Assembly: GCF_037042905.1 (NCBI RefSeq)
Contig: NC_087251.1
Span: forward strand, 22,942,001 to 23,006,000
Direction of reading: 5' to 3'
Origin: Lytechinus pictus
Lineage: Eukaryota
Length of the DNA: 64,000 nucleotides
Positions within the stretch are counted from its first letter, which is position 1. Every line of letters starts with the position of its first letter. A program made the position numbers and the translations under genes. A model generated the notes under the pieces. It made no database searches. It was not told where the DNA came from and was given only the letters and a program-made list of their open reading frames with translations. Of the stretch, positions 18,401-62,241 are shown one piece after another.

Positions 18401-19158
18401 CTTAAATATCGATTCCAAAACGCTCAAGACCAGTTGAAAGACTCTCGAAAGATCCCGAAACTTTAATAATCGATAAGATCATTCCTGACACCTGTCAGAT
18501 CCTTCAGAGATCTTCCTTGGCTCCATATAGCCTCTGTGTAGCCTGTCGAAACAGTTCAAAACAGGCTTTTTGGTCACCATTCCGCAGAACGGAAACCATT
18601 TAAAAGACCGGAAATTTGCATGACATTTCAGCAGTCTCCAAGATCAGTGAAATCTGATGTTTCTGTGGAATGGTTCCGGAAACCCCTGGAAAACCATTCT
18701 AAGACATTGAAATATTCGTAAAAAGTCGTCGGACAGCTGAAAGTTTACTCAAAGTCAAATTAAACTATTGAGAGATTACTGAAAGATCATTTGGCATACT
18801 GTCAGAGAATTTCGAGAGATCAATCAGGTTCTCTCAACTATAGTCCATCAGCTATCTTTCAATGGTTTTTCAGTCCTCTTAATATATTGGCAGGTCTTTA
18901 ACTGGTTTCTATGGACTTTCACTGTCTTTCTATCAGTGATCTCCATAAAAACATGAAAAGCTGTCGAAAGATCATAGGAATACTGATCATGCTTATAAGC
19001 TTTGAGTAATCAGGTGACAGCTGCAAATAGACTGAAGGCCACTAAAAGACTGTTATCCTGAAAGACCGCTGACAGACTGTTATGAATCGTTTAAACAAGG
19101 TTACAAACTACGGAAACCTGCACGAAGAACGTTGAAATAGTCTTTCAGCGCTCACTAG

Positions 19159-19365
19159 CTCTAAAAAACGATATTAAACTGAACAATTGAAATGTTAGAG
19201 GAGTGACAACCTTTTCTAAGTGTTGCATTACCACTTTAAATGGTTCGACCCGACATTTACATTGTTGAATTCAGATTAATGCAAGGTTGAATATAAGATT
19301 TAAAAAAGATTGTCACTCCTCCAATTTTTCAGTTGTTGATTTAACATTTCAGTTGTTAAGAGTGC
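19159..19365. mobile_element. Degenerate palindromic MITE
   Basis: Inverted arms GAGGAGTGACAACCTTTT / AAAAGATTGTCACTCCTC and CTCTAAAAA..TTAAGAGTG termini. Confidence 0.55.
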
Positions 19366-19935
19366 TGTTTCTGCTTTGTGTTTCTCTGTAGACATTGTGG
19401 AATGGAGAGTAAAACTGATCTTCCCAAGGTCTTACTAATCTCTAAATGATTTAGAAAAGATACTCAATAACCAACAAATATGTTTTTAAAATAGCACTGA
19501 GAAATCATATCGAAACTTCTACAAAACCAATTAAATTTGGTAAAGACTAGTGAAAGAATTTGTATGAAATAGCCCAAAAGGTGCGAAACTATTATCACTG
19601 AGCCATTGCACTTTTAATAAGAAGGGGAGTGATGGGGACGGATAAAGAGAGAAGAGAGAGAGAGGAACAGAAACAGGAACACACACAGAGAGAAAGAGAT
19701 ATGGATAGAATGACAGTGGAAGGAGAGAAAGATGAAATGATAATAATAATAATAAACTGGTGATAACATATCGCATAATCAATTAAACTGCTCTCTGACA
19801 TTACGAACAGCTCTCCAATATTACACTGCAAAAAAATACTTAGTGTTCTTTTTTCCCCCAAGTTTTATCTCATAAACTTTGCTGTTTAAATGACATCGTA
19901 TTTATCTCAAACAACTCAGGCATAGACATCGTCAG

Positions 19936-19990
19936 ATGGCTTACTTTTGGAAGCTGCTTGCATCCGTACATCTTTTCCTATTTCTGTCAG
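19936..19990 (+). CDS. Gene 2 coding exon 1, signal peptide MAYFWKLLASVHLFLFLS
   Basis: ATG at 19936, basic n-region then hydrophobic core, CAG|GTAAGA donor; phase 1 matches the exon at 21446. Confidence 0.85.
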
Positions 19991-20518
19991 GTAAGAAACA
20001 TGAGCAAAACTTTATCGAGATTTCTGCGTCTCTCCTACTTGACTATTGTTTCAAAATCTTTTATCATTTCTGGAAATCAAGCTGTCATTAATGTTTCTAA
20101 ATATTTACACAGACTGAATTATACAAACAATTACCTGGAATAATGAAGTGTAATTTTTAACATAAATGTATAAATGTGTGTCACTTCTGTAAATAAAACC
20201 ACAACTAACTATCTTAGGTAAGATTAAGTACGCTTTGATGAAAAACAAAGAACTAACTAAAATCGCATCGGGAGCGAGTTTAAAATGTTGTGTGTAGCAG
20301 TCAACACTGTTTTTTTTAAAATTCTATATAGGTTTTCAAATTTCTAGTAAGATTATAGTAAATAATTTTCTTTTCTTTTTTGTCTTTTTTGTCTTTCTTT
20401 CTTTCTTTCTGTTTTTTTCTTTTTAGGGGGGGGGGTGTCCCCTCTACCTGAAATTTAGGGGGGACGTGTCTCCCCTCTTCCGCCACCCATGTCTCTGACA
20501 GTTTCCATAATAATAATT

Positions 20519-20766
20519 TAGTGGCGTAATTAGACCAAAAATTTGAAGGGGTTAGATTTGGCTTATTGCGTTAAATAAGAAAAAAAGTTGCAAGCGAGCG
20601 TTTTTATTTCAAAAATCAAATTTTGTGATGATTTTTGACGTAATATTCAGAAGATAATATCATATTTCATCCTTCTCTCTTTCCTTTTTTCCGTTTCTCT
20701 TTTTGTCTTGGTCGTGAAAACTTTTGGGGGCAAGAGCCCCCAAGCCCTCCCATCTGTACGCCACTG
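20519..20766. mobile_element. hAT-like MITE
   Basis: TAGTGGCGTA...TACGCCACTG termini; flanks TAATAATT / TAACAATT (7/8 match, 8-bp TSD). Confidence 0.7.
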
Positions 20767-21445
20767 TAACAATTACGAACAGGCAGAGACCTCATCAACA
20801 TTTCTTGTCTGGCAAGTCAAGTGTCAGATTTGACTATTTTCCACGATTTTGATTGACTGAATAGTAAGTTACTATGGTAACTGTCGGATAAAACTACCGA
20901 TAAGTCCTTTCATGAATTGTTCCCCTGTCCTTCTCAGCTATCAACAATTGAAATTAGTCAGATCTGACAGTTTTCGGCGGATAAATGTTGATGAAACACG
21001 CAAGGACCGTGTAAAAAAACGAGATGTTTTATTGCTACGTCAGTAAAACATAATGAATCAGACAAATTAATAACTCAGCAAAGATACCGCTTTGTATTAT
21101 CTTCTCATCCTCATAATAAATTGTGGCCGGTGCTCCACTTTACATAAAATAATGAATCGAAAATTATTTTGAACCCAATCTGAAATTTAATCTTTGGGTA
21201 CATTTTGAAAAAAAAACCCAAATCTGTCAGAACTTGAATTAGATGCACCGATCATGATTAACCGATAAGCTGAATTCGGTTACTTTCCAGGGCTGTACTT
21301 GTCCATCCAGTTCTAGTAGACAACATTAAGACAGGGTTAAGACATTCAGTCTTCGGACAACCCCCCCCCCCCTTCCGATTTTTCCTCTGGAAAATGGTTA
21401 TAGATAATAAAATCATTTGTGACATCGTGTTGTCTTTCATTTCAG

Positions 21446-22225
21446 ATGTTATATCTTCCATGGTTGTACAGCCAACTGAAACAATGAACACCCAGACTGA
21501 TGTTACGATCATCACAGAAGTCATTACAGCTCTGGAGAGTACCGACAAGGATAAATCTATGAAGAGCTCCAGCATGGAAGCTGACACTACTGGAAAACTC
21601 ACCGAAGAAACCATGACAAGCAAACCGGCAACAAGGATAGAAACCGGTACTTCTCTTATGGATACTAACGAGTCACCCACGGCAACCAAGGAGTTATCCA
21701 TGGTAACCAATGATTCACCCACGGCAACCAATGTGTTACCCATGGCAACCAATGAGTCCCCCGTGGCAACCAATGAGTCACCCATGGCAACCAATGAGTC
21801 CCCAATGGATATAAGTTTGTCCTCTCTTGCTACCATTGTGACCCTCGATACGACTGACAAAACGTTCACCATGGAAGTAACAAAAGCTGTCCCTGAAGAT
21901 GATGATGCCGAGGTGACTACAGTGGATGTGGTAAAGGATGTTACAGCTGAAGACGGTATCGAACATGTAGTCACCACAGAACCTGTCCATGTCATCGAAG
22001 CTACCTGGGTCTATGCACCAACATCAAGAGAAACAAGAACCACTGGAGCTCCTATGTTGCTTGATACTACTCTCGTACCAGAGACAACTTCCTCCATGAT
22101 GACGACATCTGAAGTTAGCACTACTGCTGATGTTACTACTCGTGATACCACTACTCGTGAAAGCACTACCGATAACGTATACGGTGAAACTGAGACACCT
22201 GATAATTCAACTGCATTAATTGAAG
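21446..22225 (+). CDS. Gene 2 exon 2, Thr/Ser/acidic mucin-like stalk with 7-aa MATNESP repeats
   Basis: TTTCAG acceptor, 780-nt open frame rich in T/S/E/D, GAAG|GTAGAT donor; phase 1-1. Confidence 0.9.
21658..21810 (+). repeat. 21-bp coding minisatellite (about 6-7 degenerate units)
   Basis: Repeated CC(A/G)TGGCAACCAATGAGTC(A/C)C encoding (M/T/V)ATNESP. Confidence 0.85.
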
Positions 22226-22784
22226 GTAGATTCATGTTTGCTTTTGAACCTCATATGTTATCAAACTTATGTATTTGCTGACACTGAATGAACTACCGGG
22301 TTTACTTCCCCGATCAAAATTTCATCTCAAGCACCAATCGGTAAAATTTGTACTTTTTAAACATGTTCATAAACAATATAGGTGTACGTGATAATCTTTT
22401 GATAAAACAAAGTTTCCCTATTGCCATCCCTACTGGTCGGTCATGTTTCAAATTATTTTTGGGGCATGAAATGAAAAGTAAACAAATCTTGAATTGATGA
22501 AAGATAAAACAAGTTAACAAAAAATAAAAGAAATTTTGTTTTATCTACGGGGGTATCTGAATAGAAACAGAAGCCTATAATTTATAGATACATTATAATG
22601 CCATTGTTAATTGGATTGGCCTTTTCTATTATTCGGCAAACGGTAATAAAACATAAAAATTGAATGTTATTTCTTTTCAATAACTTTTAGCATACGAATT
22701 GAAATACGTACGACTTCTTAAAATTTTAATGAAGATTTTGTATGACTTCGTCTATCCTGTATCAAATTTTTATTAAAAATACAG

Positions 22785-22903
22785 ACACAACAATAGCTTC
22801 TATACGTGTGGCAATATCTATCTACGGTGAGGAATTTGATGAAGCGTTAACCGATACTTCTACAATTGAATTCATGAGAGCCGCAGTGAACTGGAAAGAA
22901 AGA
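22785..22903 (+). CDS. Gene 2 exon 3, SEA-like domain N-half: DTTIASIRVAISIYGEEFDEALTDTSTIEFMRAAVNWKER
   Basis: TACAG acceptor, AGA|GTGAGT donor, phase 1-0; the F..AL.D.S..EF pattern is typical of the SEA domain first strand/helix. Confidence 0.85.
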
Positions 22904-23596
22904 GTGAGTCGTATTTTCATTTAATCTACCTTCAATTTATCATTTTAATGAATTGAAATCCTGGTTATCGGTACCTCAAACGAACTATTTTTGAATCGGG
23001 TGTTGATGGCAGAACAATTGAAAAGAGGCATAAGAGGTTATCACTTGAATAGATTCTCCAGGTAATATATAGGTTACTACACGGAACAAAGGTGAAAGAT
23101 GTTAAGGTGAGATGGGACGGAGGCTTATATTCCAGTGGTGTTCCAAAAGCTACAAGTGGAGTTTCTTATAGCTTCATACAAGCAAAGTAGGGTTCGCAAT
23201 AATCACATTAGCTAAATTTGACATGGGTGGGGTACTGATTGTCAAATCAGAAATTATTGTTAAAGATAAAATCGTGTTAAGTATAGTTGCATGTATGAGC
23301 TAACTTTTTAGGTGCTCAAAATTCCACGTCCTTAAACGAAAAAGAAAATAGGCTTACCCTCAAGAACGTTAGTAAAAAAAAAAACAGATCTCATGAAAGG
23401 ACGATACGTGCAATTTGTTCATCGACGTAGCTGATACAAAATACGAAAAAAAACTTATTGCATTTATATTTGTGTTTCTTGTATTTAAAAAAATGTAAAA
23501 ACAAATTGTAATGCCATTCGTCTACTCTGATAAAATATCTTGAACTATGTTTTATGACTGTGTTTTATGAAATATTAATTAATTATTGAATTACAG

Positions 23597-23831
23597 ATCG
23601 AATATGCTTTCTGTAACGCTTCATCGGGTATTTGGAACGACACTTGTCCAATCACGGCGGAAGTTACAGGAATCAATCTAGACCCCTCTACCATACATAC
23701 TGTTCTTGACATTACTCATGTCAATGAAGACATCGTGAGCGCTTTGACTGAATTCATTCTTGATAATATCAACATCTCAATCTTAGACGAGATGGGAAAC
23801 GCTTACAACATAACGATCTCCAGTCTTACCC
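23597..23831 (+). CDS. Gene 2 exon 4, SEA-like domain C-half (IEYAFCNASSGIWNDTCPITAEVTGINLDPSTIHTVLDI...NITISSLT)
   Basis: TTACAG acceptor, CCC|GTGAGT donor, 235 nt open, phase 0-1; not in the ORF track. Confidence 0.85.
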
Positions 23832-24261
23832 GTGAGTACTTGAGGAAGTTTCACTTTTGTTTACTTCTAATAATAAGGATTTAATTATAGTTGATTCACG
23901 ACATCAAAGAAATGAATCGTCCCTGCCGAAAGTGGAAAAAAAAATCTTCTTTACGGGATTAGAAGTATATTCCTATCATATGATAAAATACTTAAGCATT
24001 TTAGTCGAAATGAAAAATCTTCATTTATTTTTTAAATGTGACAGTAACCCTGTATAACCCGCATCTGAGAGCACCCAGTTGGCACACTGACTAGGTTGCC
24101 CAGTCAAGCACGGTGAAAAACGTGCCTTTCACACACAAAAAAAAATATTAACGGTATGGTCGTACCATTATCGCAAATTATAGATATCTTGACCAACAAC
24201 TGATCATTTGGCTTATTAAGCTCTTAACGTTTGAAACTTCATTTTTATTGTTATTTTGCAG

Positions 24262-24302
24262 TAATAACTGAGGCTCCTGATACAGCATCCAATGGAATTC
24301 AG
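24262..24302 (+). CDS. Gene 2 exon 5, linker LITEAPDTASNGIQ
   Basis: TTTTGCAG acceptor, CAG|GTGAGT donor; phase 1-0 bridges exons 4 and 6 exactly. Confidence 0.85.
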
Positions 24303-24846
24303 GTGAGTAGAAGTGGAATTTTTATTATCTATTATCTTTTCCTTCTGTCAAATTCCTTTCATTTCTACTCTTGCCCCTTCCATTTCTTGGATTAATTCCT
24401 TCTTAGTCCGCTTCTTTTCCCTCTTATCTGCTACATAATTTGATTTAAGTTGTCGTAATTGGTGTATTATAGATGATTTCTTCATTTCGATTTTTTACAA
24501 TTTCGGTAAGTCATTGTGTGATTTGTTTTCCTGCAAAAAATTATACTTGTCGAATGAATTTCCCATGAATGTGTTTCGTTTTACTTAACTTTTTTAAAAT
24601 GTGGTTCATCATATCGTTTTTTATCGCTTATATCATTTTATGTGGTGCAATTTTCGGAAAGGAAAATTTCATTTCTATCGGTTGAATACGAACAAAGCAA
24701 GGAACTAACTGAACTCCCAGTTTTTCAATATAGCATAAAAAGAGATTTTTGCATTCTTATACTCATATATCTTTTTGAATTAATCCGTCATGTACTGCAT
24801 GAGTGATTTAATGTCAACGGCGAAATAATCATTATCCCCCCCCCCC

Positions 24847-24880
<34 letters not shown>

Positions 24881-25202
24881 ACACACAATGGACAATATGG
24901 CGAATCGTAATACTAGATATTTACATTGTCTATCTATGAACTGTTTAATTCTACGGTTTACTGAGCTTAATTGACAAAAATGGCCATTGGGCCTTTTGAA
25001 TTGTGAAATTTGTTTATTGTTTACGTAAAATATTTTCCATCTCAATTTTTCAAATTTTGTAAAATCGTACGTCAGCACAATGTATGATAAAGGTAATCAA
25101 GGTAGTAACGGTTAGTTATTGTTGTTTTGTTTCCTATTTAAAAGAAAAAGATCCTGATAATTTTTCAAAGTGCAATGATGACGTTGCTTATACCCTTTGC
25201 AG

Positions 25203-25325
25203 AATTTGACATGTCATGTATGCAGCACAGATGATAGTGATGCCGCAGATTTCTGTTATGCTGGTGGGATTCTACTGACTCTGGAGGGATCCACTGAGAT
25301 GTGTATTGTTGGAGAGAGTTGTCTG
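25203..25325 (+). CDS. Gene 2 exon 6, Ly6/uPAR (LU) domain N-half: NLTCHVCSTDDSDAADFCYAGGILLTLEGSTEMCIVGESCL
   Basis: TTTGCAG acceptor, CTG|GTACGT donor, phase 0-0; LxCxxC start motif of three-finger domains. Confidence 0.9.
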
Positions 25326-25382
25326 GTACGTATTGAATGGGATAGTTTCGGGATATACCGTTAGCGAGGAATCACTATTGTG

Positions 25383-25564
25383 AGGTGCCGTGGCCGAGTG
25401 GTCTAAGGCGCCTGACCGTACATGAACAGTCCGGGGTTCGATCCCGAGCCGCGGCAACTATGCCCGTGAGCAAGGCATTTAATCGACAATGCTCTTTTAT
25501 CCTGCATTCAAATAAATGGAAACGCTATACGCATTCTTGGTAACTAAGCGTGCGTTTGTTTGTT
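25383..25564 (+). mobile_element. tRNA-derived SINE inside the intron splitting the LU domain
   Basis: Pol III A box TGGCCGAGTGG (25391-25401), B box GGTTCGATCCC (25435-25445), non-tRNA body, GTTT tail. Confidence 0.75.
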
Positions 25565-25833
25565 AAAAACTAGCACAATATATCAATGCAATGAAAGTAT
25601 TGTTCGGTGACATATACGGTAAAGTTTAATAGAATGAGATTACAATCATGGTAGGTGGAACTAAATGAACCGGAAAATATAAGAAAGAGAACGTATCAAC
25701 CGAGTAACTTAGCTTTAAATTTCTCTATTTTAAGAATCTTTATTTTAAGATCGAGGCCTTTACTTAAAGACCCCCCGATGATTGATTGTTGACCGGGATA
25801 TCACAATCTTTATTCTATTTCCATTTATTTCAG

Positions 25834-26088
25834 ACATTAAAGACTTCGAACATAACACACACCTCCATCGTCCGCCAATGCGCCTCTACAGATATGTACT
25901 GTGACAATGCGAACATGCCATCCATGTCCTGCAAACACGCTCAACCCACAGGAGGAATACACATGAGTGAGTGCCACAGATGCTGTTCAACCGACTATTG
26001 TAATCTGGACGCTGGTTCATCAGATTGCCGACCTATTCCTTCTCTCTTATTACTTCTAGCTACTATTTTCATGACCTTGGCAATATGA
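25834..26088 (+). CDS. Gene 2 exon 7, LU domain C-half (CCSTDYCN) plus GPI-anchor signal
   Basis: TTTCAG acceptor, phase 0; CCxxDxCN LU signature followed by small residues (DAGSS) and a hydrophobic tail SLLLLLATIFMTLAI*. Confidence 0.9.
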   Translation, partial: TLKTSNITHTSIVRQCASTDMYCDNANMPSMSCKHAQPTGGIHMSECHRCCSTDYCNLDAGSSDCRPIPSLLLLLATIFMTLAI

Positions 26089-28545
26089 TCATGAAATACC
26101 CATCTAAACATCCTGGCTAAACATGGATGTTTTCATACATTTTTCCCTTTCTTGCATGGGTGTCGATCGGTATTCATGTACTGGGGAATGACTTCGTGAG
26201 GAATAGATAAAAAATGCGAACGCGAAGCGCGATCTGAAATAAGCGGATTTTTATGCCCATGTAGGCAAATAATTTTCTATGATAGGACCAAAAGCCTATT
26301 GTACTCTTTTTTATTTTTGTATGAGGGTGTTTAAAAACTATTAACAGTTTTAAGACCCTTTTTGCTGTACCTATTCAAATCCTCTATTGACAACATGACA
26401 CTTAACCAGCAGAAACTATTTTAAACATGAATAAGTTGGATTAACAGATGTAGGCATACTTTGAGAAGAATTGCAATGTCGTGATACTCATTCTTTAGAA
26501 AAAAAAGTTTGTTTTCGAAATATATATAGGGCTTTTCTTCAAATTACAGGTATATTTTTCAATTATTAGTACTTAAGAAGTGTGAATATTGTCCACTATT
26601 CTATTTAAAGACATATAATACATACTTAGATGCACAAATAGTAAAGCAGCTGGGTTATGATTTTAAAGAGCAACGATGACAAATCGCAGCCTTGAGGAAG
26701 GACCAGCTGTTGGTTAATTGGATAACATGATATAATACATATGGGGGTAACACAAAGAAGTCGGATCAAGGAATGCTCTATTCCACTACATCTTGGGGAA
26801 GGGACTGGAAAATTATTGTGACGATTTCTACGCAGAATTCTGCGCAGATCAGACAATGAGTACATGTTTTCTTTTAAATAAAGAAGTGGATAGATAAAAA
26901 TATTTATCAGAGGAATAAATATTAATATGACTACATGGTTGTAAAGGAGTTTATACGTAAACCTTAATTAGATTCAAACTAAAAAAGTCTTTTTTGATAA
27001 TGTTTTTTTTAATTCAAGTTATAAAATTTGTTATATTTTTCTAAATATATTCACATTACTGATATGCCTAAGTCTTGGTCTAATGTATATCTTTACATTT
27101 GTCCACAATTTTTTGAGAATGTAAAAACAAATACATATTTTTGGATTAGTGATTCACAATGTGTTCTTAAGACAGCTCAGTTCAAGAGCATTTGATTTCG
27201 TGACTTATATTTGATTAAGTTATTGTAGCCAAAGGTTTTCGTATTAAGAAATAAGATGGAAGAGCATTATATATATATATATATATAAAATGGTTATTAA
27301 ATGTACCAACTATTTTGTACATATCCGGACAAATGTTGAAATAAGTTATAAAGTTTATTATAAATTTCTTTTTTATCACAGTATATAAATATGATCACAA
27401 AGAATTCTCCCTTTTTCAAAATAACTTATACCGAAAAGAGTCAAGCAAATTAATTTTCAAGTGGTCAGAAATTTATTGGCTAACGTATCTTTTTTCATAA
27501 TGAAACACGCATGCGCTCTGATTTATACATTCCCGAGCTCATTAAGAGCAGTCGCGCAATTGTCTAAAAAGGCGTTGTTTTTGTGTTTTGTTTTTTTGTC
27601 ATTCCATTTGTCAAGTTATTCCTTAAATTTCCGATGATGTACACATTTCATGCTATTGATCAGAATACTCATTTAAACTATTATGCGCTCTTAAGCTGAC
27701 ACGTCCAGTGCTGGCAGAAAGAAAAACAGTGTAACTGAAACTGAAAGAATTTAGTGCCAATTTTCTGCCTTTTGTTACTGATATTACTTGTATTTCTGAA
27801 AGGTGCAATCGCTTTATATAGTGAATTTAATTTGCGTTCGGGTGCTGAGCTTGAATACCTGGCTTGTTTGGATAGCTTGTCGCTCAACCTCTCCATGTAA
27901 ACTGGCAAATGGTGTACGCACAGAATATTAATGTCCAGAGAATAGTTATCTTAGTACTTTATGAATGTATGTATGGTCTTCATCATACTACTGAATAGTT
28001 GGAAGGGATTAATATCAGACTATTATTGTATTGAGGGCTAAGCAAAACTAGATTTGGGTTTTGATATTTACGACTAAGCAGAAATAATTGGAGTTTGTTT
28101 GAAGGGACATTTTTTGTTATTTCAGCTTTTCAAAAATGTTAATTAAGTGGAATTTCTGCAGCATGAAGAAAAGTCTTCAGTGATTGTTCATAGAATCCAG
28201 TTCGTTACCACAGGTTAGACATGTTGAAATTCGGCTGAATATAGTATTTAAATATCCATTTCGAACTTATTAACCTTAAGTCTACTACCATGAAGGAAAG
28301 TGTGCTACGATATGAACTATATATGGTAGTATACGAATATAAAGCTATAAGTGCTAATTTCTGTAAAACTATGGCTCAGTCACTATACATGCTTGGACTA
28401 GTATATTTTGATCCATTTAAAATGTCATTGCCAAATAATGTGCATGTTTAGAAAGATGTTTTCTAAACTGAAAAGACTTCTTAATTTCTAGCCATTATAC
28501 ATGTATGTGTATTAACTGACTGAGTTAAAAAAAAACTTTACACCT

Positions 28546-29286
28546 AAAACTAGAAATTTGACGCGTCCAAAGGACACAGATGCCCCCGCTTGACGCGATC
28601 AGAAATTCATTCAATATGATTGAACTTAATATCGTGCAGAAACCAATATGCATGAATATTATGAACAAATTTAGACCTTTGACCTAAAGACTCACCATTT
28701 CCATAATAATCTCTGACAGAAGATATGACAGTCAGGTCATTTGATGTGACCTGACTGTATTTTGGTGTCATCTACCCAGACACCAAACATTTTTAATATC
28801 TGGTGAATATTTCCAAAGTTATCATGCGGAAACTAACTCGCGTATATAATGAGCTGTGACCTTTGACCTGCGGACTCGAAATTCGAACTTACCCTGTATA
28901 TTGGTGTCATCTACTTACACACCCAATTTTTTTTAAAATCCGTTGAATATTTCATAAGTTATCACGCGGAAACCAACTCGCATATTTAATGAGCTGTGAC
29001 CTTTGACCTGCGGACTCCGAATTCGAACTTAGCCTGTATGTATTTTGGTGTCATCTACCTACACACCCAATTTTTTTTAAATCCGTTGAATATTTCTTAA
29101 GTTATCATGCGGAAACCAACTCGCATATTTAATGAGTTGTGACCTTTGACCTGCGGACTCCGAATTCAAACTTGGCCTGTATTTTGGTGTCATCTACCTG
29201 CAAACCAAACATTATTAAAATCCGTTGAATATTTTTCGAGTTATTGCGCGGAAACTAAGTGGGGGGACGGACGGACAGGGGAATAA
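28546..29286 (-). mobile_element. HINE/DINE-like (Helentron-associated) non-autonomous element with internal ~140-bp tandem repeats
   Basis: AAAACTAGAAA end, three ~140-bp units containing TGACCTTTGACC (28851, 28991, 29134), GGAC microsatellite near the other end. Confidence 0.6.
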
Positions 29287-32985: not shown

Positions 32986-33148
32986 TTTACCTCTGCCATT
33001 TTTACCTCTGCCATATTTACCTCTGCCATTATTACCTCTGCCATTTTTACCTCTGCCATTATTACCTCTGCCATTTTTACCTCTGCCATTTTTACCTTTG
33101 CCATTTTTACCTCTGCCATTTTTACCTCTGCCATTTTTACCCGGCACC
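32986..33148. repeat. 15-bp minisatellite (about 10 units of TTTACCTCTGCCATT)
   Basis: Directly visible; ends in TTTTACCCGGCACC, possibly a transposon terminus with subterminal repeats. Confidence 0.95.
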
Positions 33149-48840: not shown

Positions 48841-49308
48841 GCCAAAAATGTGTAGGGTCCTAGGAACACGTATTAAAGAAGTGTCGTGGTGAACAATGTT
48901 ACAATTTTACATGACAAAGGGAGATTAAATGCGTTCTTAAAAAGTATATATTGGTGCTTAGGATGAGTACTATAACAGATGTCTAGTCGATCTCTGATTT
49001 GGAAAAAAATGCAGCCTTCCTCGTTCTGTGTCTCCAAATCCTTGAGCATGGTAAACGCATTGAAAATGCAAGTGAAATCACAAGGAAAAGCTGGGAAGTG
49101 TTTGTAGAAAATGAGTGAATTGGAACAGCAGTTCCGTCCTGCCTTTCGGAGCTGACGAAAAATCGAAATATGTTGTTTGTCCAGAGTCCAGGACGGAACT
49201 GCTGTTTCAATTCTCCAACCCGACAAAGACTTCATTGTGATAAAGGGCATTTGACAATACATTATATATGTTCCCAAACGCGTTCTGCGTCATTATCTCT
49301 CTTTGTAG

Positions 49309-49407
49309 TTAACTGTACTGCCAGTAATCCTTGTCTGAACGGAGGAACATGTATGAACGAAACGTGTTCATGCGTCGATGGATTTACTGGAGACACGTGT
49401 CAGACAG
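49309..49407 (+). CDS. Gene 3 EGF exon 1: NCTASNPCLNGGTCMNETCSCVDGFTGDTCQT
   Basis: TGTAG acceptor, CAG|GTACTA donor, 99 nt, phase 1-1, six-Cys EGF spacing. Confidence 0.9.
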
Positions 49408-50165
49408 GTACTAACTATAATATTGATTAAAATTCTGTGTAGCATAATATGTATATGGATAATCTTTCATATTGCTTAAATTTTCAAGGTTTCATTTACC
49501 CTTTTTTTTAACTTGTTACATCTGATACAACCATGTGAAAATAGCAGAACCTACCAAAATCCGTTGTTTTGTTTTGGACTACCACAACAGTCATTTTACT
49601 CCAGTGTTCTTTTTTGTGCTTATTAATCATCTATGGGCGTTAGGTCAATATCTTTGGATGTTATTTTTTCATTCAATGGTGTTGTGTTAAATCAATAGGA
49701 TGTAAGTTTAACACTTCAGAGTGTGGTCCTGTAGGGAAACTAACTGGTGCCAGTTTCAACACCAAGCTCTTACAGTGTACAGTGTAAGATTCGAATTAAG
49801 AGGATTAGGTAGAATAAACCATATCGGGCCTACCTTGCATTAAAAAGGAGATTTATATCTTGATTTATTGAAGCACATCCAGATTGAATGTATTATTTTA
49901 ATTATTATTTTAATCATTATTTTAACAACAAAAGAGAATATCGAATTTTTTTCTCAATCATAAAACATATTATTTCAGATATGAATTCATACTTCTTAGC
50001 GTTTCGTATAGTTTGTATATTTTTTCTGCTTATGTTGAGGCACAGGCGCTCTCAGCACTTTAATGATTAGGACCAATTTTCTTTTTGATGTAATACCAAC
50101 TTATACAACAAGGAAGTAGAGGAATGTTTTATTTTTATTCGTACCATCTCTATCTCTCTCTCTAG

Positions 50166-50264
50166 TTAACTGTACTGCTGGCAACCCTTGTCTGAATGAA
50201 GGTACCTGTGAGAACGACACCTGTTCATGTTTTGCGGGATTGACTGGAGATCTTTGTGAAACAA
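50166..50264 (+). CDS. Gene 3 EGF exon 2: NCTAGNPCLNEGTCENDTCSCFAGLTGDLCET
   Basis: TCTAG acceptor, A|GTATGA donor, 99 nt, phase 1-1. Confidence 0.9.
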
Positions 50265-50626
50265 GTATGAAGTTTTATTAAAATAAGTGGCTATTGGTGT
50301 TTTGTATAGACACCAATTTAACCCCTAAGGGAGTGCGATATTTTTGAGGATTGATGATGGCCTCTTCTTTATATTGCATTACCCCCTAATTTTCACATCC
50401 CTTAGCACATGAATTCATACTTGTGTCCCGTGTAAATCATAATTCGTCTTTTTCGTAATATAAAAATTGGTATGCACTCTCAATTTTGGTTAGGATCAAT
50501 TTCGTTTAGTTGTAATAACTTCGAAGGAACTATATAATTAAATTAAAGGTTAATTTATACGATCTCCCTTTCTGTCTCCTTGTTCTTTCTCTCATTCTCT
50601 CTTATTCTATCTCTTTCTCTCTCTAG

Positions 50627-50725
50627 TTAACTGTACTGCTGGCAGTCCTTGTATGAACGGAGCTACCTGTGAGAACGACACGTGTTCATGTTCTGCGGGA
50701 TTGACTGGAGATCTGTGTGAAATAA
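50627..50725 (+). CDS. Gene 3 EGF exon 3: NCTAGSPCMNGATCENDTCSCSAGLTGDLCEI
   Basis: TCTAG acceptor, A|GTATGA donor, 99 nt. Confidence 0.9.
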
Positions 50726-51199
50726 GTATGAAGTTCTTAACCTTTATATAATGAGTGGCTGTGTGTGGTTTTCCATACGTTATGGTCGTCTTTGCCAGCG
50801 AAGGACGAACATCATCATCCCTGTTTGACCCAAGTGATAAAGACTTCCTACCAAACATAGATTGTCTGCAATTTATCAAACACCTTGTTATATGTTAGGT
50901 CTTAATCATTTCAATTAACACCCAAGGAATTGTTTTTACGATGATGATGGCCTCTTTTCTTACATTGCATTTGCCCCCTCACATACACATCCACATGAAT
51001 TGCCCCACGTAACTCATAATGTGTCTTTCTTGTAATATTAAAGTCGTATGCACTCTGAAAAACAATTGGTTCGGATCAATTTCCTGAAGCCATTATGACT
51101 TAATTTTAACAATATAAGGAAATGAAAAGGTGATATCAACGATGTCTCTTGTTGTCTCCCCGTTCTTTTCTCATCCTTTCTCTTGCTATCTCTATTTAG

Positions 51200-51298
51200 T
51201 TAGCTGTACTGATGGCGACCCTTGTATGAACACAGGTACCTGTGAGAACGACACGTGTTCATGTTCTGCGGGATTCTCTGGAGATTTGTGTGAAACAA
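51200..51298 (+). CDS. Gene 3 EGF exon 4: SCTDGDPCMNTGTCENDTCSCSAGFSGDLCET
   Basis: TTTAG acceptor, A|GTATGA donor, 99 nt. Confidence 0.9.
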
Positions 51299-52189
51299 GT
51301 ATGAAGTTCCAGCACACTTTATTGAAATGAGCGGCAGCGGCTATGTGTGTTTTCCCTAGTTAATTTGTAGTGTTTAACCAGGAAGTTGTGAGGAATGAGC
51401 TGAAACTCATTTAATTCATGAAAAAAATATTCATGGGTCTTAAAGCATGATAATGAGATTCGTAACATTCCACTTAAATTTCAAAGTTCCATGCGGCTGG
51501 ACGCCCAGAACGTGTTTTTAATGTTTAAAAGTATTGATCAAATAGCAATATAAATCACAAAGCTCATGAATGGTTTAAGTTAGAAATAGGGCACCGAACT
51601 AATCTCTCAAATTTAGCACTAAACCAGTGTTGAATAAAGGGAAATTGATATTTGAGTGCGTTAATCATTTGCGCACATGTTATTCTCCTGTCATTTAACC
51701 TACGATTTACAATACTCGATATAAAATACTTTGATTGTGCGTGTTTCCACATGCATTTTACTTTAGCAGTTTAAAATAGTATGAAAATTAAATAGACTGC
51801 GATTACGAATAACACGCATTACACATTCAACTATTAATAAGGATATTGTTAACATAGTAATCAAACAGTTGCCGAGATACGATATTCTATTTTGCGAGTT
51901 TTAAACACTTGTTTATCATGCGTTGTAATAGCTAATCAGCTGGTTTACAGATGCAGATTAGCGCGAAACTTATTGGTGGTGTCAAGAATGGGATCAAAGG
52001 AAAGTAGCTCGACTCCGCTTCTTCCTTACATCTCCCTTTTTCAACCCATCAGATAAGAAAGAAACATAAATCAGAAGTATACGAAGAAATTCATTGAGCT
52101 GCAGCAAAGTTAATTCAATAGATGAATCCGTATTCTTCGATGTAATACGTCGTCTTCCAAAATTCAAATTGCTGATCCTAATGCAAAAG

Positions 52190-52630
52190 AAATTCGGCAA
52201 AAATTACCTCCAAAATTTCAATTGCACACTTCAGTCTTCTTCAGGGATATGACCCGACTGATCTTCGCCGGAAGTGACGTAGCGGCAAAGAATTGGGTCA
52301 TAAACTCTTGGAAGGTTTTATCGGCCCCCGTCACGATTCAGCGAAGGTTTGTGCGCCTTATGTAGATGGCTTCATTCACTCCTCTCTCAAACCATCTATC
52401 CTCCCTGTCTAAGATCTCCTCCTTGTCGAGGTCCAGGGTATTTCCCGGCGATTCAATACGAATGTGCTGAGAAACTTCCGACACGGAACTCGGGCGACGT
52501 TTCTCCCATGTAGGATTTTTTGCCTACACCACTGGCAGTTATTACTTGGCAAGGGATCCTATATATCACTCCAGTAAGGTTCTTCTTTTCAGTCTTGTCT
52601 CTGGGAACTACAAGGAACCGGTTCAAACCA
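52190..52630 (-). mobile_element. Penelope-like retroelement 3' fragment (GIY-YIG endonuclease end)
   Basis: Minus-strand FLVVPRDK...GVIYRIPC...SYMGET, then after frameshifts ILDREDRWFERGVNEAIYIR and KPSLNRDGGR, characteristic of the PLE GIY-YIG C-terminus. Confidence 0.85.
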
Positions 52631-52665
52631 ACTAGAACATATGAGTTCACTATCTCTCTTTGTAT

Positions 52666-52767
52666 TTAACTGTACTGCCGGAAATCCTTGTCTCAACGGA
52701 GGTACATGTGCTGCGAGTGATACGTGTACATGTATTACTGGATTTACTGGAGACACGTGTCAAACGG
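52666..52767 (+). pseudogene. Gene 3 EGF pseudo-exon 5 (102 nt): NCTAGNPCLNGGTCAASDTCTCITGFTGDTCQT
   Basis: Frame open and donor GTACCA intact, but the acceptor reads TGTAT instead of TGTAG (52664-52665). Confidence 0.8.
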
Positions 52768-52941
52768 GTACCAACTTAAATATTGATACAAAATTCTGCG
52801 ATGTATAATATGTAATATCTTACTCAAGGTTTCTTTTACGATATTTCCATTTGTTTCTTTGATACAACCACGTGAATCAAACAGTTTTCATTGGTGTACT
52901 GACGACCACAGTCATCTTACTTTTGTGTTCCCTTTTTAATG

Positions 52942-53609
52942 TTGACCCTTATAATACTAGGGGGCTGAAAGAGACCCCTCAAAACTTTTCCAATAACTCT
53001 GTAACGCGAAAATCGGGAGCCATACAGTGGATTTTCCTTCAAGTCTTGCGCAACTTTTGAGACCAAATTAGGGATCCCCGGGTACGCCGCCTGAAATTAC
53101 ACATTTCGTAAGTACATGTCAGAACCAAAATTGCTCAAAACGTGAATTTGTGTACAAATCCAATGCAATTTGTGTTTTGAAGCCAAAGATCTTATATAAA
53201 TATTTTTGCTTCACCTGTTTAAACCGTGTATGGTCAGAATAAACTCGCTAACAATTCCCATGGAAACAAAAAAGACAAAAAAATGACAAAAACAAAGAAA
53301 CACATTAGAAAAAAATTGTGATATTGAATTTTTAAAAGCACATTTGATAGGAGTCCTAAAAAGAGTCTGCGAAGAAATATATCAATGGGGGGATGCTCAT
53401 TTAGTTAATTAGATTTGATTTGATTTTACTAATAGATTAGCGTAATTAGTAAGTATTGATATTTTCGAAAAATGTGATCTTACAGTTTTCTAGATTATGC
53501 CATGGGTAACGCGCGTGCCGATTTTAGTGGTTGACGGCCGAGATATTAAGGGGGATGAGCCCAGTACCGTCTTCCTTAATTGGCGCCAAAATAGGCTTTT
53601 TAGTGTTAA
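52942..53609. mobile_element. piggyBac-like (TTAA, CCCT-terminal) MITE, degenerate
   Basis: TTGA-CCCT...AGTG-TTAA; absent from the paralogous intron after EGF exon 1 (about 49620). Confidence 0.55.
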
Positions 53610-54114
53610 GTCATCACCTATTTATGTTAGTACAATACTTTGGGCTGATATTTTTAAGGGTGTATGTTCAATCAATAGGATGTAGATTTAACACTCCAGG
53701 GTGAGGTACTACAGGGACGCTAACTGATGCCAATTTCAACGCGAAGTTTTTGCAGTGTATGATTAAAATTAATAGGATGAGATAGAATAACCCTACCTTG
53801 GATTTAAGAAAATATTACTATCTTGAAAAATTGAAGCACACTCAGATTTAATATATGTTCAATTAGTCTTTTTTAAATGCTACCATTAACAACAGAAAAG
53901 CATATCAAATATATATCATATATTTTTCTCAGTCATAAATAGATCATTTCAAATAAGAATTCATGCTGTTTCATATTAGTTGGTATATGTTTCTACTAAT
54001 GTTTAGTAATGGGCGCTTCAGGCACTTCATTGTTTAAGATAAATTTCATTTTGGTGCAATAACAATAAAGTGGAGGTAAATTTGTATTCGTATCATCTCT
54101 CTTTCTCTTGCTAG

Positions 54115-54213
54115 TTGACTGTTCTGCCGGCAACCCTTGCCTGAACGGAGGTACATGTGAGAACGACACGTGTTCATGTTCTGCGGGATTGACTGGGAAT
54201 ATGTGTGAAACAG
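54115..54213 (+). CDS. Gene 3 EGF exon 6: DCSAGNPCLNGGTCENDTCSCSAGLTGNMCET
   Basis: GCTAG acceptor, CAG|GTATGG donor, 99 nt. Confidence 0.9.
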
Positions 54214-54599
54214 GTATGGAGTTCCAACACACCTTATTGAATGATCTATGTGTGTTTTACCTATATAATTGGTAATGTAGATCAAGGGAGTTTTGAGGAA
54301 GGGGGTGGAAGTTTATGCAAAAACCATTCATGGGTCTTACCGTAACGATTGGAGTTATAACATTTCACATATTTTTAAGTTCCATGCGGCTATGCCTATG
54401 TATCTCATAATTTGTGTACCAAATTAGATCAAAGGAAAATATTATTCTCATAAAATCAATATTGAAGTACGGTGAACATCCTGATTCGCAGGCTCTATCA
54501 CGATTGACGACATCAATTTTCCTTTTTCTTTGCATTTCCTCATTTTTGACATCGTGTTTTGCCTAGTGGTCATATCTTGGTCGTAAATATGAATGTATA

Positions 54600-56381
54600 T
54601 ACAGTGCGTCCCACAAAAAACGAAACCGAGATTTATCGATGATTTATCATAACTTAATCACAAATAAAATAGACAAATGACCTACCATTGTAAAGCTTAG
54701 AATCTCCTCTTTCATCTTAAATTACTTAGACTATTTTTCATTCAAGCATGAGTGAGCAAAAACAATTTGAAGAGGGGATATCAAAAAGTCATTTGGCGGG
54801 CTGTATCTGGGTTTCAAAAAGAAAACCACAATTTAAACAAGTGGAATGCCTCTGGCCGTCTCACCTGCATCACGCGATTCAATATAGCAGCAGTGCTGAT
54901 TTTGAAAACTACTATAACTCGCACAAGATGTTCAGTGATACTTTGTGACTCTTATTTCCACGTTTTATGAACTAGACCAATACACTTATAGAGAAATGAT
55001 GGCAATTCAACAAATACCCCCAACGTGGCCAAAGTTCTTTGACCTTACATGACCTTTGACCTTGATCATGTGACCTGAAACTCGCACAGGATGTTCAGTG
55101 ATACTTGATTACTATTATGTCCAAGTTTTATGAACTAGACCAACACACTTTCAAATTTATGGCTGTAATTCAACAAATACCCCAATTTGGCCAAAGTTCA
55201 TTGACCCTAAATGACATTTGACCTTGATCATATGACCTGAAACTTGCACAGGATGTTCAGTAATACTTGATTACTATTATGTCCAAGTTTCATGAATCAG
55301 ATCCATAAACTTTCAAAGTTATGATGGTAATTCAACAGATACCCCCAATTCGGCCAAAGTTCATTGACCCTAAATGACCTTTGACCTTGGTCATGTGATG
55401 TGAAACTCATGCAGGATGTTCAGTGATACTTGATTAACCTTATGTATAAGTTTCATGAACTAGGTCCATATATTTTCTAAGTTATGATGACATTTCAAAA
55501 ACTTAACCTTAGGTTAAGATTTTGATGTTGATTCCCCCAACATGGTCTAAGTTCATTGACCCTAAATGACCTTTGACCTTGGTCATGTGACATGAAACTC
55601 AGGCAGGATGTTCAGTAATACTTGATTAACCTTATGGCCAAGTTTCATGAACTAGGTCCATATACTTTCTAAGTTATGCTGTCATTTCAAAAACTTAACC
55701 TCAGGTTAAGATTTGGTGTTGACGCCGCCGCCGCCGTCGCCGCCGCCGTCGGAAAAGCGGCGCCTATAGTCTCACTCTGCTATGCAGGTGAGACAAAAAG
55801 TTCAATATCTGCTCTTTAATTTGATACCTCAATTACGGAAAATGGTCAAGAAATAACAAAGTTATGGTTATTTGAAATGAGGCTTGAATTTCAATAATTT
55901 CATAAAATTAAGGGGTTCTACAGGCTAGCGTTCAAACTCACTTGACACTCCGTTTTGTTGACGATCAGCCATGCATTATGTCTTTTGTTAACCATGCGAT
56001 AGCTTCTGTGGGAAACCGGTGAAAACACGTTTATTTAATGAAATTATGGAAATACAAGCGTTGTTTCGAGGGAACATAACTTTTTTACTTCTTGACCATT
56101 TTTTGTGATTAAGGTATCAAATAAAAGAGCAGATATTGAACTTTTTAGGCATGTGATTTTCTTTTTGAAATTCAGATACCTCCCGCCAAATGAGTTGTTG
56201 GTATCCTTTCTTCAAATTGTTTTTGCTCACTCATGCGTGAATGGGGAATAATCTAAGTATTATCAGATGAAAGTGGAGATTCTAAGCTTTACATTGGTAG
56301 GTCACTTGTCTATTGTATTTGTGATGAAGTTATGATAAATCATCGCTTAATCTCGGTTTCGTTTTTTTCTGGGACGCACTG

Positions 56382-56383
<2 letters not shown>
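54600..56383. mobile_element. Tc1/mariner-like element, second copy, interrupted by a nested insertion
   Basis: TA-CAGTGCGTCCCA...TGGGACGCACTG-TA; colinear with 43376-44199 except for the 54836-55797 insert. Confidence 0.9.
54836..55797 (-). mobile_element. HINE/DINE-1-like (Helentron-associated) element with internal 162-192 bp tandem repeats
   Basis: Subterminal inverted repeat GTCTCACCTGCAT (54858-54870) / ATGCAGGTGAGAC (55782-55794), GCC microsatellite, TGACCTTTGACC repeats, inserted in an A/T run without a clear TSD. Confidence 0.75.
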
Positions 56384-56413
<30 letters not shown>

Positions 56414-56560
56414 TACATATATATATATATATACATACATACATAGTCTGAATCGGCATATAAGAGATATATATATTATATATATATATATATACATATA
56501 TATTGATATGCATATAAATCAGGGGCATTATGATCTAGAGGTAGGTTCACATTGCAGGCG

Positions 56561-56724
56561 GAAGGCGGCTCCAAAGCATGGGTCGGTGTGTAACATGAAG
56601 AAAGGCAGAGCGAGAAAGAAAGAGGGGGATCAAGAGAAACAAAGACTGGGATTCTGGGACTGAGATAAGACAATCTATACTATTATAGGCTACATACATA
56701 GCAAAACACACACACACACACATC

Positions 56725-56778
<54 letters not shown>

Positions 56779-56976
56779 CATACTGTTATAATAGGCTACA
56801 TACATAGCAAAACCCATATATATATGGGTTTTGCTATGTATGTAGCCTATTATAATCGTATGATTGTCTTATCTCGGTCCAAGAATCCCAGTCTTTGTTT
56901 CTCTCGATCCCCCTCTTTCTTTCTCGCTCTGCCTTTCTTCATGTTACACACCGACCCCTGCTTTGGAGCTGCCTTC
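56561..56976. repeat. Inverted duplication around a TA microsatellite, containing a perfect 70-bp palindrome
   Basis: 56561-56707 is approximately the reverse complement of 56829-56976; 56786-56855 is its own reverse complement. Confidence 0.9.
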
Positions 56977-57292
56977 ACATCGCCTATTCAAGTGACACGA
57001 GTCACCTGACTCTTCATGTAAACATTTACACCATGCGCACGGTTCGTTAGCTATAACTATTGTTAGGCCTATAGCTAGTTCAGCGGTCAGGCCGACCTGA
57101 GTCCAATTGGGGTGAAACACATTACAATTGCAGGACTGCAGCAGGCGTGACTCCGGCTTCAAACCACATCCAAAGGCGGACTCAAAAGTCGAGTCGCCTC
57201 CGACGCCGGATTGAGTCCAGCTTCGACGTATGTGTATCACCATCCTATCTCACATTCTCACACAATGGCGTTTTCACTATCTCTCTATGTAG

Positions 57293-57391
57293 TTAACTGC
57301 ACTGATGGCAACCCTTGTCTGTATGGAGGTACTTGTGAGAACGATACATGTACATGTAATACTGGATTAACTGGAGATGTGTGTCAAACAG
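57293..57391 (+). CDS. Gene 3 EGF exon 7: NCTDGNPCLYGGTCENDTCTCNTGLTGDVCQT
   Basis: TGTAG acceptor, CAG|GTACCA donor, 99 nt. Confidence 0.85.
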
Positions 57392-57872
57392 GTACCAACT
57401 TTGTTTATTAAATGTATAAAATTACCTCTGTGGCCTTTGCCCTTTGAACTAGTGAATCTCAATCTTGTCATAGTATTTAAATTTTCACCTACACACACAC
57501 ACAAAGATTGAAGATGAACCGTCCAAATTTTCTTTAGTTATCGCGAGATTAAAAACGGGAGAGGACGAACGACCAGAAAATATAAAGCCTCCGGAAATAA
57601 GCTACAGTTGGCAGATGCATAAAAGCATTCTTAAGCCACGTAAGACCAATTCATCCTACGAGGATCCTAGTAAAATTAAATGGGCATTAGTACGGTCCTT
57701 AAATTCATGTATATTTTCATTGAAGCTAAAAAACAAATCCATATATTTAATACGCTGCCATAACTCTGCCTAATTTTTGTATTACTCATTTTCATATGAA
57801 TTCATACTTGTGCCCATATCTCTTTCTGTCTCCACTTTCTTTCATTCTTTCTCTATGGCTATCACTATTTAG

Positions 57873-57971
57873 TTTCCTGTAGTGGCAACAGCCCTTGTAT
57901 GAATGGAGCTACCTGTGAGAACGACACGTGTTCATGTTCTGTGGGATTGACTGGAGATCTGTGTGAAACAA
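57873..57971 (+). CDS. Gene 3 EGF exon 8: SCSGNSPCMNGATCENDTCSCSVGLTGDLCET
   Basis: TTTAG acceptor, A|GTATGA donor, 99 nt. Confidence 0.9.
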
Positions 57972-59175: not shown

Positions 59176-59274
59176 TTTCTTGTACTGACGGCAACCCTTG
59201 TATAAATGGAGCTACTTGTGAGAACGACATGTGTTCATGTTCTGAGGGATTGACTGGAGATCTCTGTGATACAA
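59176..59274 (+). CDS. Gene 3 EGF exon 9: SCTDGNPCINGATCENDMCSCSEGLTGDLCDT
   Basis: TTTAG acceptor, A|GTATGA donor, 99 nt. Confidence 0.9.
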
Positions 59275-59530
59275 GTATGAAGTTCTAACAATCCTTATCT
59301 AATAAGAAAAGTCGCTATTTTTCACCGTTCCTTGTTAACAAAAACTTACCCTTTATGTGTTTTAAAATAATTTGTAAATACATTTAGTGCATATAGAACA
59401 TCGAAGTGTGGCAAAATAAAATTTCCTAATTTTTTTTTCTAGAGTTGAGAATTTTTGACATCAAATTTCGAAAGCGCATGATAAAATGTCTCCAAAACCT
59501 ATATTGTGGGAATCGGTAAATTTCGGCCCA

Positions 59531-59561
<31 letters not shown>

Positions 59562-59615
59562 ATTGGCCCTATTGGAGTCAGTATATTATTTGCCTAGTAG
59601 TCATATTTTGGGTCG

Positions 59616-59655
<40 letters not shown>

Positions 59656-59671
59656 AAATATGATTATATCT

Positions 59672-59759
59672 GGCAACCCTTGTCTCAATGGAGGTACTTG
59701 TGAGGAGAACGATACATGCACATGTACTAGTGGATTTAAAGGAGATGTGTGTCAAACAG
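59672..59759 (+). pseudogene. Gene 3 EGF pseudo-exon 10 (5'-truncated): GNPCLNGGTCEENDTCTCTSGFKGDVCQT
   Basis: 88-bp deletion relative to 62273-62360 removes the branch/pyrimidine region, AG and first Cys; donor GTACCA intact. Confidence 0.85.
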
Positions 59760-60891: not shown

Positions 60892-60943
<52 letters not shown>

Positions 60944-60959
60944 AAATATGATTATATCT

Positions 60960-62208: not shown

Positions 62209-62241
<33 letters not shown>

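Follow-up and report, generated by a model that had tools for sequence, protein, structure and literature searches.

Does one gene in the sea urchin Lytechinus pictus encode a signal peptide, a mucin-like stalk, a SEA-like domain, a Ly6/uPAR (LU) domain and a GPI anchor, as an original prediction from 64,000 nucleotides of its genome (the whole stretch analysed, hereafter the window, in whose numbering coordinates are given) had claimed? We confirmed that the window holds, on the forward strand, a real gene whose product is a surface protein, in all likelihood lipid-anchored, with a stalk, a probable SEA domain and an LU domain. Its seven exons, with coding lengths of 55 + 780 + 119 + 235 + 41 + 123 + 255 = 1608 nt, are separated by six introns that all run GT..AG in phases 1, 1, 0, 1, 0 and 0, and the sole stop in the spliced frame is codon 536, giving a 535-aa protein. 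The consistent phase proposed for the seven exons was thus borne out, as was the remark that four are invisible in the open reading frame (ORF) track: exons 2, 4 and 7 lie inside ORFs of at least 100 aa, and exons 1, 3, 5 and 6 lie outside them. As a chance check, AG..GT-bounded stretches of the same length on both strands, the real exons counted in, were scored as open in the needed phase. Such openness occurred in 2 of 334 stretches of 780 nt (exon 2), 5 of 357 of 235 nt (exon 4), 23 of 350 of 123 nt (exon 6), 37 of 350 of 119 nt (exon 3) and 178 of 361 of 41 nt (exon 5). A 250-aa reverse-strand ORF over exon 2 was read as a shadow of that repetitive exon. Neither tblastn nor a scan for the LU motif detected another copy of the gene in the 64-kb window, and no tRNA genes were called. 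At 19183–19336, Rfam returned two weak matches to miRNA families (E 0.16 and 0.25), far below the gathering score.

Splicing was assessed with contigs from four sequencing runs (X1–X4). X1, X2 and X3 belong to one study, are about 95% alike to the window and are presumed to be RNA, no run being on record as such; the contigs were used for splice joints, tissue and expression level not being readable from contigs. All six predicted junctions were present as contig joints in each of X1, X2 and X3, which bears out, in a close relative, the claim of one spliced gene. X4 contained none of the six, and a 2485-nt contig there ran through introns uninterrupted (20439–22910). At the exon 4/5 joint, the last two exon bases were replaced by two other letters in the contigs, and two joints carried the mark "between: not known". 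Two contigs, X1 record 4 and X3 record 13, each have 165 nt between exon 4 and exon 7, the length required by the two altered letters together with exons 5 and 6. The 5′ untranslated part of exon 1 extends at least from 19804 (19804–19935; X3 record 12 covers 19804–19986 and is then joined to 21442), and the 3′ untranslated region is at least 1.7 kb long (26089–27814; X1 records 4 and 5, X3 record 13).

The coding part of exon 1 (19936–19990, aa 1–18) runs from the ATG at 19936 to a GTAAG donor, its junction was seen in three of the four runs, and it encodes a hydrophobic segment (peak 2.07) that resembles a signal peptide. Exon 2 (21446–22225, aa 19–278), which is shared with the Lytechinus variegatus protein XP_041467721.1, encodes an acidic, Thr/Ser-rich stretch (S+T 33%, P 5%, D+E 18%, net charge −32) whose composition agrees with the mucin stalk first proposed, just as the first exon agrees with the proposed signal peptide. 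The 259-aa stalk makes up about half of the mature chain, which has a net charge of −57; the whole protein contains 12 N-glycosylation sequons. Within exon 2, a 21-nt (7-aa) tandem repeat of 6.6 copies occupies 21670–21808, and the contigs break inside it at about 21703–21770. The repeat is longer in L. variegatus, where its short motif matches 17 times versus 6 here. A word-index protein search with exon 2 among proteins of 455–2000 aa found nothing, the 370-aa L. variegatus protein lying outside that range.

Exons 3 (22785–22903, aa 279–318) and 4 (23597–23831, aa 319–396) encode a domain of about 118 aa that is conserved in UPI000222A893 (P0002), a 515-aa UniParc entry (BLASTP E 1e-65): 23 of 40 and 43 of 78 residues are identical, and the cysteine pair C324 and C335 is retained. 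In a low-confidence model of the P0002 domain, the fold has ferredoxin-like topology, with the first strand and helices in exon 3 and the remainder in exon 4. The domain is extracellular and directly follows a stalk, 33% S+T, that is predicted to be O-glycosylated; we take it as likely to be SEA. We hold it improbable that it is some other small alpha/beta domain, in which case the label "SEA + LU" would be wrong and the gene still real. That alternative draws on the failure of the exons, P0002 and alignment A1 to match Pfam SEA or solved SEA structures by sequence, and on a wide structure search in which SEA came 20th, inside a tied range with many unrelated folds. It is opposed by the position right after the stalk, the size and topology, a structure alignment spanning 94 of 115 residues of a SEA chain, and a short additional helix, patterned F-x-x-x-L-x-D-x-S-x-x-x-F and placed behind strand 1, which we take to resemble SEA domains. 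SEA domains are ferredoxin-like alpha/beta sandwiches of some 105–120 aa, and divergent ones, such as that of Gpr126, are visible by structure only. The original SEA assignment is partly supported: the ferredoxin-like fold comes from the low-confidence model, and the structural match is not specific to SEA. PDB sequence searches returned nothing at E ≤ 0.1 except USP28 at E 0.1; for exon 4, HMMER gave one match among 1.84 billion representatives and the Atlas no usable match. The MUC1-type self-cleavage motif of the beta2–beta3 loop, G-S[V/I]VV, is absent from the window protein and from P0002.

After a short linker in exon 5 (24262–24302, aa 397–410), placed by the exon model and contig joints, exon 6 (25203–25325, aa 411–451), placed by the same evidence and by cysteine spacing, supplies the first five cysteines of the LU domain, and exon 7 (25834–26004, aa 452–508) the other seven, ending C-x2-CC-x4-CN. 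The 12 cysteines counted earlier up to CCxxDxCN are all there, spaced 3, 11, 16, 6, 17, 7, 10, 14, 3, 1 and 5, and a 13th lies in the C-terminal tail. According to PMC9410279 and PMC7582953, LU proteins have eight invariant cysteines in order, ending CC-x4-CN, with up to three extra disulfides; the window protein shows this order and ending. Exon 7 also returned QVR, UPAR_LY6 and Toxin_TOLIP feature clusters in the Atlas, and the proposed Ly6/uPAR domain is very likely an LU fold. Exons 6 and 7, each scanned singly, had no Pfam match, to clan CL0117 or otherwise; exon 7 had no detectable sequence match among solved structures and none in a word-index search of proteins of 148–2000 aa, and its single-sequence fold prediction was uninformative. 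That the 12 cysteines are a novelty, as had been suggested, is not supported: they follow the known six-disulfide pattern of Lypd6, Lypd6b and Lynx2, whose additional bonds lie in loops I and III (PMC7582953). By position, C417/C428 and C484/C498 correspond to Lypd6 Cys6–Cys15 and Cys61–Cys72 and would pair accordingly, which places the domain in this subtype by cysteine position with no claim of orthology.

The rest of exon 7 (26005–26088, aa 509–535 and the stop) reads as a GPI-signal-like tail: small residues at 511–514 as the putative omega site, a spacer and 14 hydrophobic residues, with no cytoplasmic part. By inspection and hydropathy, the signal-peptide-like segment and this tail are as expected of a GPI-anchored protein. 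The protein's closing hydrophobic stretch, the only one at that end, extends right up to the stop codon, as it would not in a transmembrane mucin. The predicted GPI anchor is very probably correct.

We put a rough probability of 45% on the reading that this single gene yields a GPI-anchored glycoprotein with a signal peptide, acidic Thr-rich mucin-like stalk with its length-variable repeat, uncleaved SEA domain, six-disulfide LU domain of Lypd6/Lynx2 pattern and GPI signal, and we infer how it would work. As reported for Lystar5, Lypd6 and Lynx2, the LU domain at the membrane may take as its partner an adjacent membrane protein of its own cell, be it an integrin, a receptor or a channel. A stable spacer or docking module, not a break-point, would be the part played by the SEA domain; the O-glycosylated stalk would act as a brush of negative charge, shielding the cell and damping its adhesion; and any release would come from cleavage of the lipid anchor or from a protease cutting the stalk, not through SEA self-cleavage.

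Other roles were weighed against this reading. The protein could be a structural or barrier mucin of epidermis, gut or an apical layer, or a microbe-binding decoy, with the LU domain a mere compact pedestal and microbes or lectins bound by the stalk or SEA domain; the large share of stalk, the sequons and the length-variable repeat fit this, but retention of 12 of 12 canonical LU cysteines and the protein partners reported for studied echinoderm LU proteins make it unlikely. Somewhat less likely still is gamete-surface recognition, with an LU domain like that of fish Bouncer or acrosomal ACRV1/SP-10 and a stalk and SEA domain like sea-urchin sperm surface proteins. Bouncer has been cited as a fertilisation factor that acts species-specifically, ACRV1 has its LU domain (188–263 of 265 aa) behind a lengthy N-terminal region, the annotation of one starfish LU-GPI protein reads "63 kDa sperm flagellar membrane protein-like" (PMC11595613 Tables S1–S2), and the stalk repeat varies in length between close species. 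Against this, exon 4 differs from the relative's contigs at only 6 of 233 bases, hence no sign of fast change there, and LU divergence in the contig table is pooled with the 3′ untranslated region; a literature search on the 63-kDa sperm protein found nothing. Synonymous versus non-synonymous changes, for 38 of the 40 differences listed (251 further), were 11 versus 20 in exon 2 and 4 versus 3 in exons 3, 4 and 6, too partial for use. An equally speculative extension posits a family of GPI-anchored SEA-LU mucins, so far undescribed, in echinoids and possibly in echinoderms at large. On gametes or coelomocytes it would serve as a switch for recognition or adhesion, in which a glycan brush of variable length would control access to a three-finger ligand, the mucin base thus carrying a Bouncer-like or receptor-modulating module; truncated gene models and the failure of Pfam on both domains would have kept the family hidden. 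More doubtful again is a capture platform like GPIHBP1, where an acidic disordered N-terminus would draw in a secreted enzyme or growth factor of basic charge, which would then dock on the LU domain: the charges of stalk and mature chain and the make-up of GPIHBP1 (acidic disordered tail, one LU, GPI anchor; Table S2 of PMC11595613) suggest it, but the acidic residues are dispersed over the Thr-rich stalk with no short cluster, a folded domain intervenes before the LU domain, and a sequence link to GPIHBP1 was not found. Very improbable is a shorter, anchorless main product with the full form minor, modelled on XP_041467721.1, which ends by reading into intron 3, since the X1–X3 contigs skip that intron at a depth equal to other junctions and have zero depth in two bins inside it (contigs drop rare variants), and the signal exon, too, is missing from that RefSeq model.

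The proposed uncleaved, GPI-anchored SEA-LU glycoprotein seems to combine familiar parts in an undescribed way. XP_041467721.1 (P0004, "surface protein-like", 370 aa) is an ortholog of exons 2–3, near-identical outside its longer repeat array; it begins inside exon 2 and has half a SEA-like domain, with no signal peptide, LU domain or GPI signal. UPI000222A893 has a Thr-rich stalk and the full SEA-like domain; its similarity stops at the exon 4/5 border, it lacks a signal peptide, and an unrelated 65-aa C-terminus, probably a gene-model error, replaces the LU and GPI parts. Two metagenome loci (L001, L002) were rejected as chance, since at E ≤ 1 tblastn matched neither of them to the window protein. 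Consistent with the original view that the combination is not a named family, none with SEA plus LU turned up in databases or in literature including the main text of PMC13719153; Pei and Grishin 2017 and the supplements of PMC13719153 lay outside this scope and could hold one. In that 2026 survey of 387 invertebrate genomes, the text lists echinoderm LU layouts as LU-only, receptor-kinase and 7TM only, and neither text nor Fig. 2 legend names SEA among LU partner domains. Surveys can miss such a layout because the LU end is absent from both of the long database relatives, and Pfam is empty on single exons. The gene would add one layout to the echinoderm list and, Lytechinus being a sea-urchin genus of the laboratory, is a ready candidate for a surface marker. 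The textbook view is unchanged, because echinoderms routinely shuffle extracellular modules and any function, the gamete or immune role first suggested included, is a proposal.

Among known systems, human GPIHBP1 and ACRV1 likewise have an N-terminal extension and then one C-terminal LU domain, but they are much shorter, lack a SEA-like domain and have no detectable sequence relation. A further precedent for a long extension before a single LU domain is Asterias rubens XP_033630875.1 ("mucin-5B-like", 338 aa, LU 220–307, GPI, no signal peptide; PMC11595613 Table S1), an echinoderm protein that, compared by table entry, shares the extended N-terminus, the single LU domain and the predicted GPI anchor. 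Lypd6, Lypd6b and Lynx2 (LYPD1) have the same cysteine order and terminal spacing; they and starfish homologues such as Lystar5 are GPI-anchored with a single LU domain, but at 141–183 aa they lack a mucin stalk or SEA domain, and loops I and III are longer in the window protein. MUC1-type membrane mucins, like the SEA regions of type II serine proteases and of GPR126, compare with the window protein in that a ferredoxin-like domain, predicted here by the low-confidence model, lies near the membrane after an S/T-rich stalk; relative to SEA-containing membrane mucins, the window protein is low in proline, has no transmembrane helix, cytoplasmic tail or cleavage motif, and carries an LU domain in the membrane-proximal position.

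Joining the seven coding exons on the forward strand (19936-19990, 21446-22225, 22785-22903, 23597-23831, 24262-24302, 25203-25325 and 25834-26088) gave 1608 nt encoding 535 residues with no internal stop, and every intron was bounded by GT..AG. The exon positions match the lengths in the original prediction, which had also described four exons as invisible in the ORF track; exons 1, 3, 5 and 6 were all absent from the window's ORF list (cut-off at least 100 aa). Among the AG..GT-bounded stretches of the window, the frame was open in the required phase in 2 of 334 at 780 nt, 5 of 357 at 235 nt and 178 of 361 at 41 nt; a chance open frame is scarce at the lengths of the long exons and frequent only at that of the 41-nt exon.

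Splicing was checked by comparing assembled contigs of four public sequencing runs (X1-X4) with window positions 19000-28000. X1, X2 and X3, which come from a single study, are about 95% alike to the window and are RNA by the tool's guess, showed joints at all 6 of the 6 predicted introns. X4 showed none and one of its contigs passed through the introns, so this run behaves like DNA. Two contigs (X1 record 4, 2922 nt; X3 record 13, 3526 nt) each take in the downstream half of the mucin exon, exons 3, 4 and 7 and the 3' UTR, and the gap between exons 4 and 7 is 165 nt in both, the length needed by exons 5 and 6. Contigs broke nowhere except within exon 2's 21-nt repeat, a stretch over which the genomic sequence keeps an unbroken frame. 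Because the data are assembled contigs rather than long reads, a single transcript containing all exons is strongly suggested, short of being directly read. The possibility that the mucin and LU (Ly6/uPAR three-finger) exons belong to separate transcripts was checked in the X1-X3 contigs, and the outcome favours one gene.

Two high-copy repeats lie within the introns. Each of the four runs has loose ends near 20880 and 20916 in the intron 1 repeat (20806-21106). The repeat in intron 6 (25383-25530) has a tRNA-like start, is covered very deeply by contigs of every run, returned no tRNA call and no Rfam match, and is probably a SINE. Upstream of the gene, 19183-19336 gave two weak miRNA-family matches far under the gathering score and is probably an imperfect inverted repeat. 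Downstream, long-period tandem repeats of the repetitive-element type occupy 28755-29234 and 54916-55722 (periods 143 nt, and 163/192 nt), and a 15-nt tandem repeat of 10.4 copies (32986-33141) lies in a 117-aa, probably non-coding open frame with a Cys/His/Tyr-rich pentapeptide repeat. Over 49242-63788 the forward strand carries an array of exons, mostly 99 nt long, and each of them supplies a single short EGF repeat with six Cys (for example 50166-50264, 50627-50725, 51200-51298, 54115-54213, 57873-57971 and 59176-59274). The peptides of the units at 60564, 61855 and 63253 are identical, which points to recent duplication of exon plus intron, and the gene probably continues beyond the window.

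When exon 4 was searched against 1.84 billion representatives, a single match was obtained, P0001 (53%, E 5e-19), whose cluster includes P0002 (UniParc UPI000222A893, 515 aa). P0002 is identical to the window protein at 87 of 259 stalk positions and, over the whole middle domain, at 23 of 40 and 43 of 78 with both cysteines retained; the likeness ceases at the exon 4/5 border. Since P0001, a further sequence (P0003) and the window's own ORF all continue past this border into intron-like sequence, the intron position after exon 4 looks conserved and the divergent C-terminal tail of P0002 is probably a gene-model error. Using the P0002 middle domain as query, we found the Lytechinus variegatus "surface protein-like" XP_041467721.1, nearly identical to window exons 2-3 apart from the repeat; on this likeness the window probably derives from a Lytechinus-like sea urchin. 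Its model starts within exon 2 and ends by read-through into intron 3, at a point corresponding to the start of that intron (window 22903-22924). Because this RefSeq model runs into intron 3 and lacks the signal exon, public annotation of the locus probably needs correction.

Ser and Thr make up 33% of the stalk (residues 20-278), Asp and Glu 18% and Pro 5%, and its net charge is -32; by composition it is mucin-like, yet acidic and poor in proline. It carries 6.6 copies of a 7-residue repeat, and the short repeat motif was counted 6 times in the window versus 17 in L. variegatus, a type of length variation expected in mucins. A single R-x-x-R site lies at residues 213-216; the L. variegatus protein also has R-x-x-R and P0002 lacks it. 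At the other end of the protein, exon 7 on its own gave a poor predicted fold, and its matches at 0.91-0.93 in the Atlas protein-cluster resource, to three unnamed eukaryotic clusters and then to QVR and UPAR_LY6 clusters, point to LU as a lead rather than proof. After the final CN, small residues occupy 511-514 and a brief spacer leads to a run of 14 hydrophobic residues that reaches the stop; this putative GPI signal has the standard layout, and a 13th cysteine (516) would be lost with the propeptide.

Reasoning by analogy, the most likely working model (probability roughly 0.45) is a glycocalyx protein that would be held at the surface by its lipid anchor, with the membrane-proximal LU domain binding a membrane partner on the same cell, the SEA domain acting as a spacer and the stalk as a shield. 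The starfish LU protein Lystar5 is located on coelomocytes with an integrin alpha-8-like protein suggested as binding partner (PMC11595613), and GPI-anchored LU domains remain near the bilayer in simulations (PMC9819746). Of the rivals, a purely barrier or decoy mucin is unlikely but survives best, a gamete recognition protein is somewhat less probable, and a capture platform like GPIHBP1 is doubtful to a slightly greater degree. A mainly truncated product is very improbable. Weighed separately from these mechanisms, it is unlikely that the middle domain is something other than SEA.

For known layouts, the available portions of a survey of invertebrate LU proteins in 387 genomes (PMC13719153) give LU-only, kinase and 7TM layouts for 7 echinoderm genomes and new layouts joining LU to Kunitz, C1q, fibrinogen, Ig, MAM, thioredoxin and permease domains; SEA is absent from the partner domains named in its main text. 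The survey could miss the window gene because it is based on Pfam and deposited models. Among the 48 starfish LU proteins in Table S1 of PMC11595613 are XP_033630875.1 ("mucin-5B-like", 338 aa, LU 220-307, GPI) and XP_033642409.1 ("63 kDa sperm flagellar membrane protein-like", 212 aa, GPI). The former may be a precedent or ortholog of the window gene; neither is named in the accessible text of PMC13409769. In the largely open full-text literature we found no description of a SEA + LU arrangement, the papers retrieved being judged unrelated from titles and the starts of abstracts. Among fish database entries there are proteins in which LU domains precede SEA and a membrane helix; if right, this would lower the novelty of the SEA + LU pairing, though not that of the window protein's order.

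The original prediction is confirmed as an observation and partly supported in its interpretation: the sea-urchin gene is real and spliced, seems to be mis-annotated, and combines known modules in an arrangement that we did not find described, one module being still uncertain. Its surprise at the 12 cysteines of the LU domain (residues 411-508) was unwarranted, because one to three additional disulfides are common in LU domains (PMC9410279) and six disulfides, the additional ones lying in loops I and III, are known from the GPI-anchored single-LU proteins Lypd6, Lypd6b and Lynx2 (PMC7582953). The window LU domain has the same cysteine order as these three proteins and the same terminal 3,1,5 spacing.
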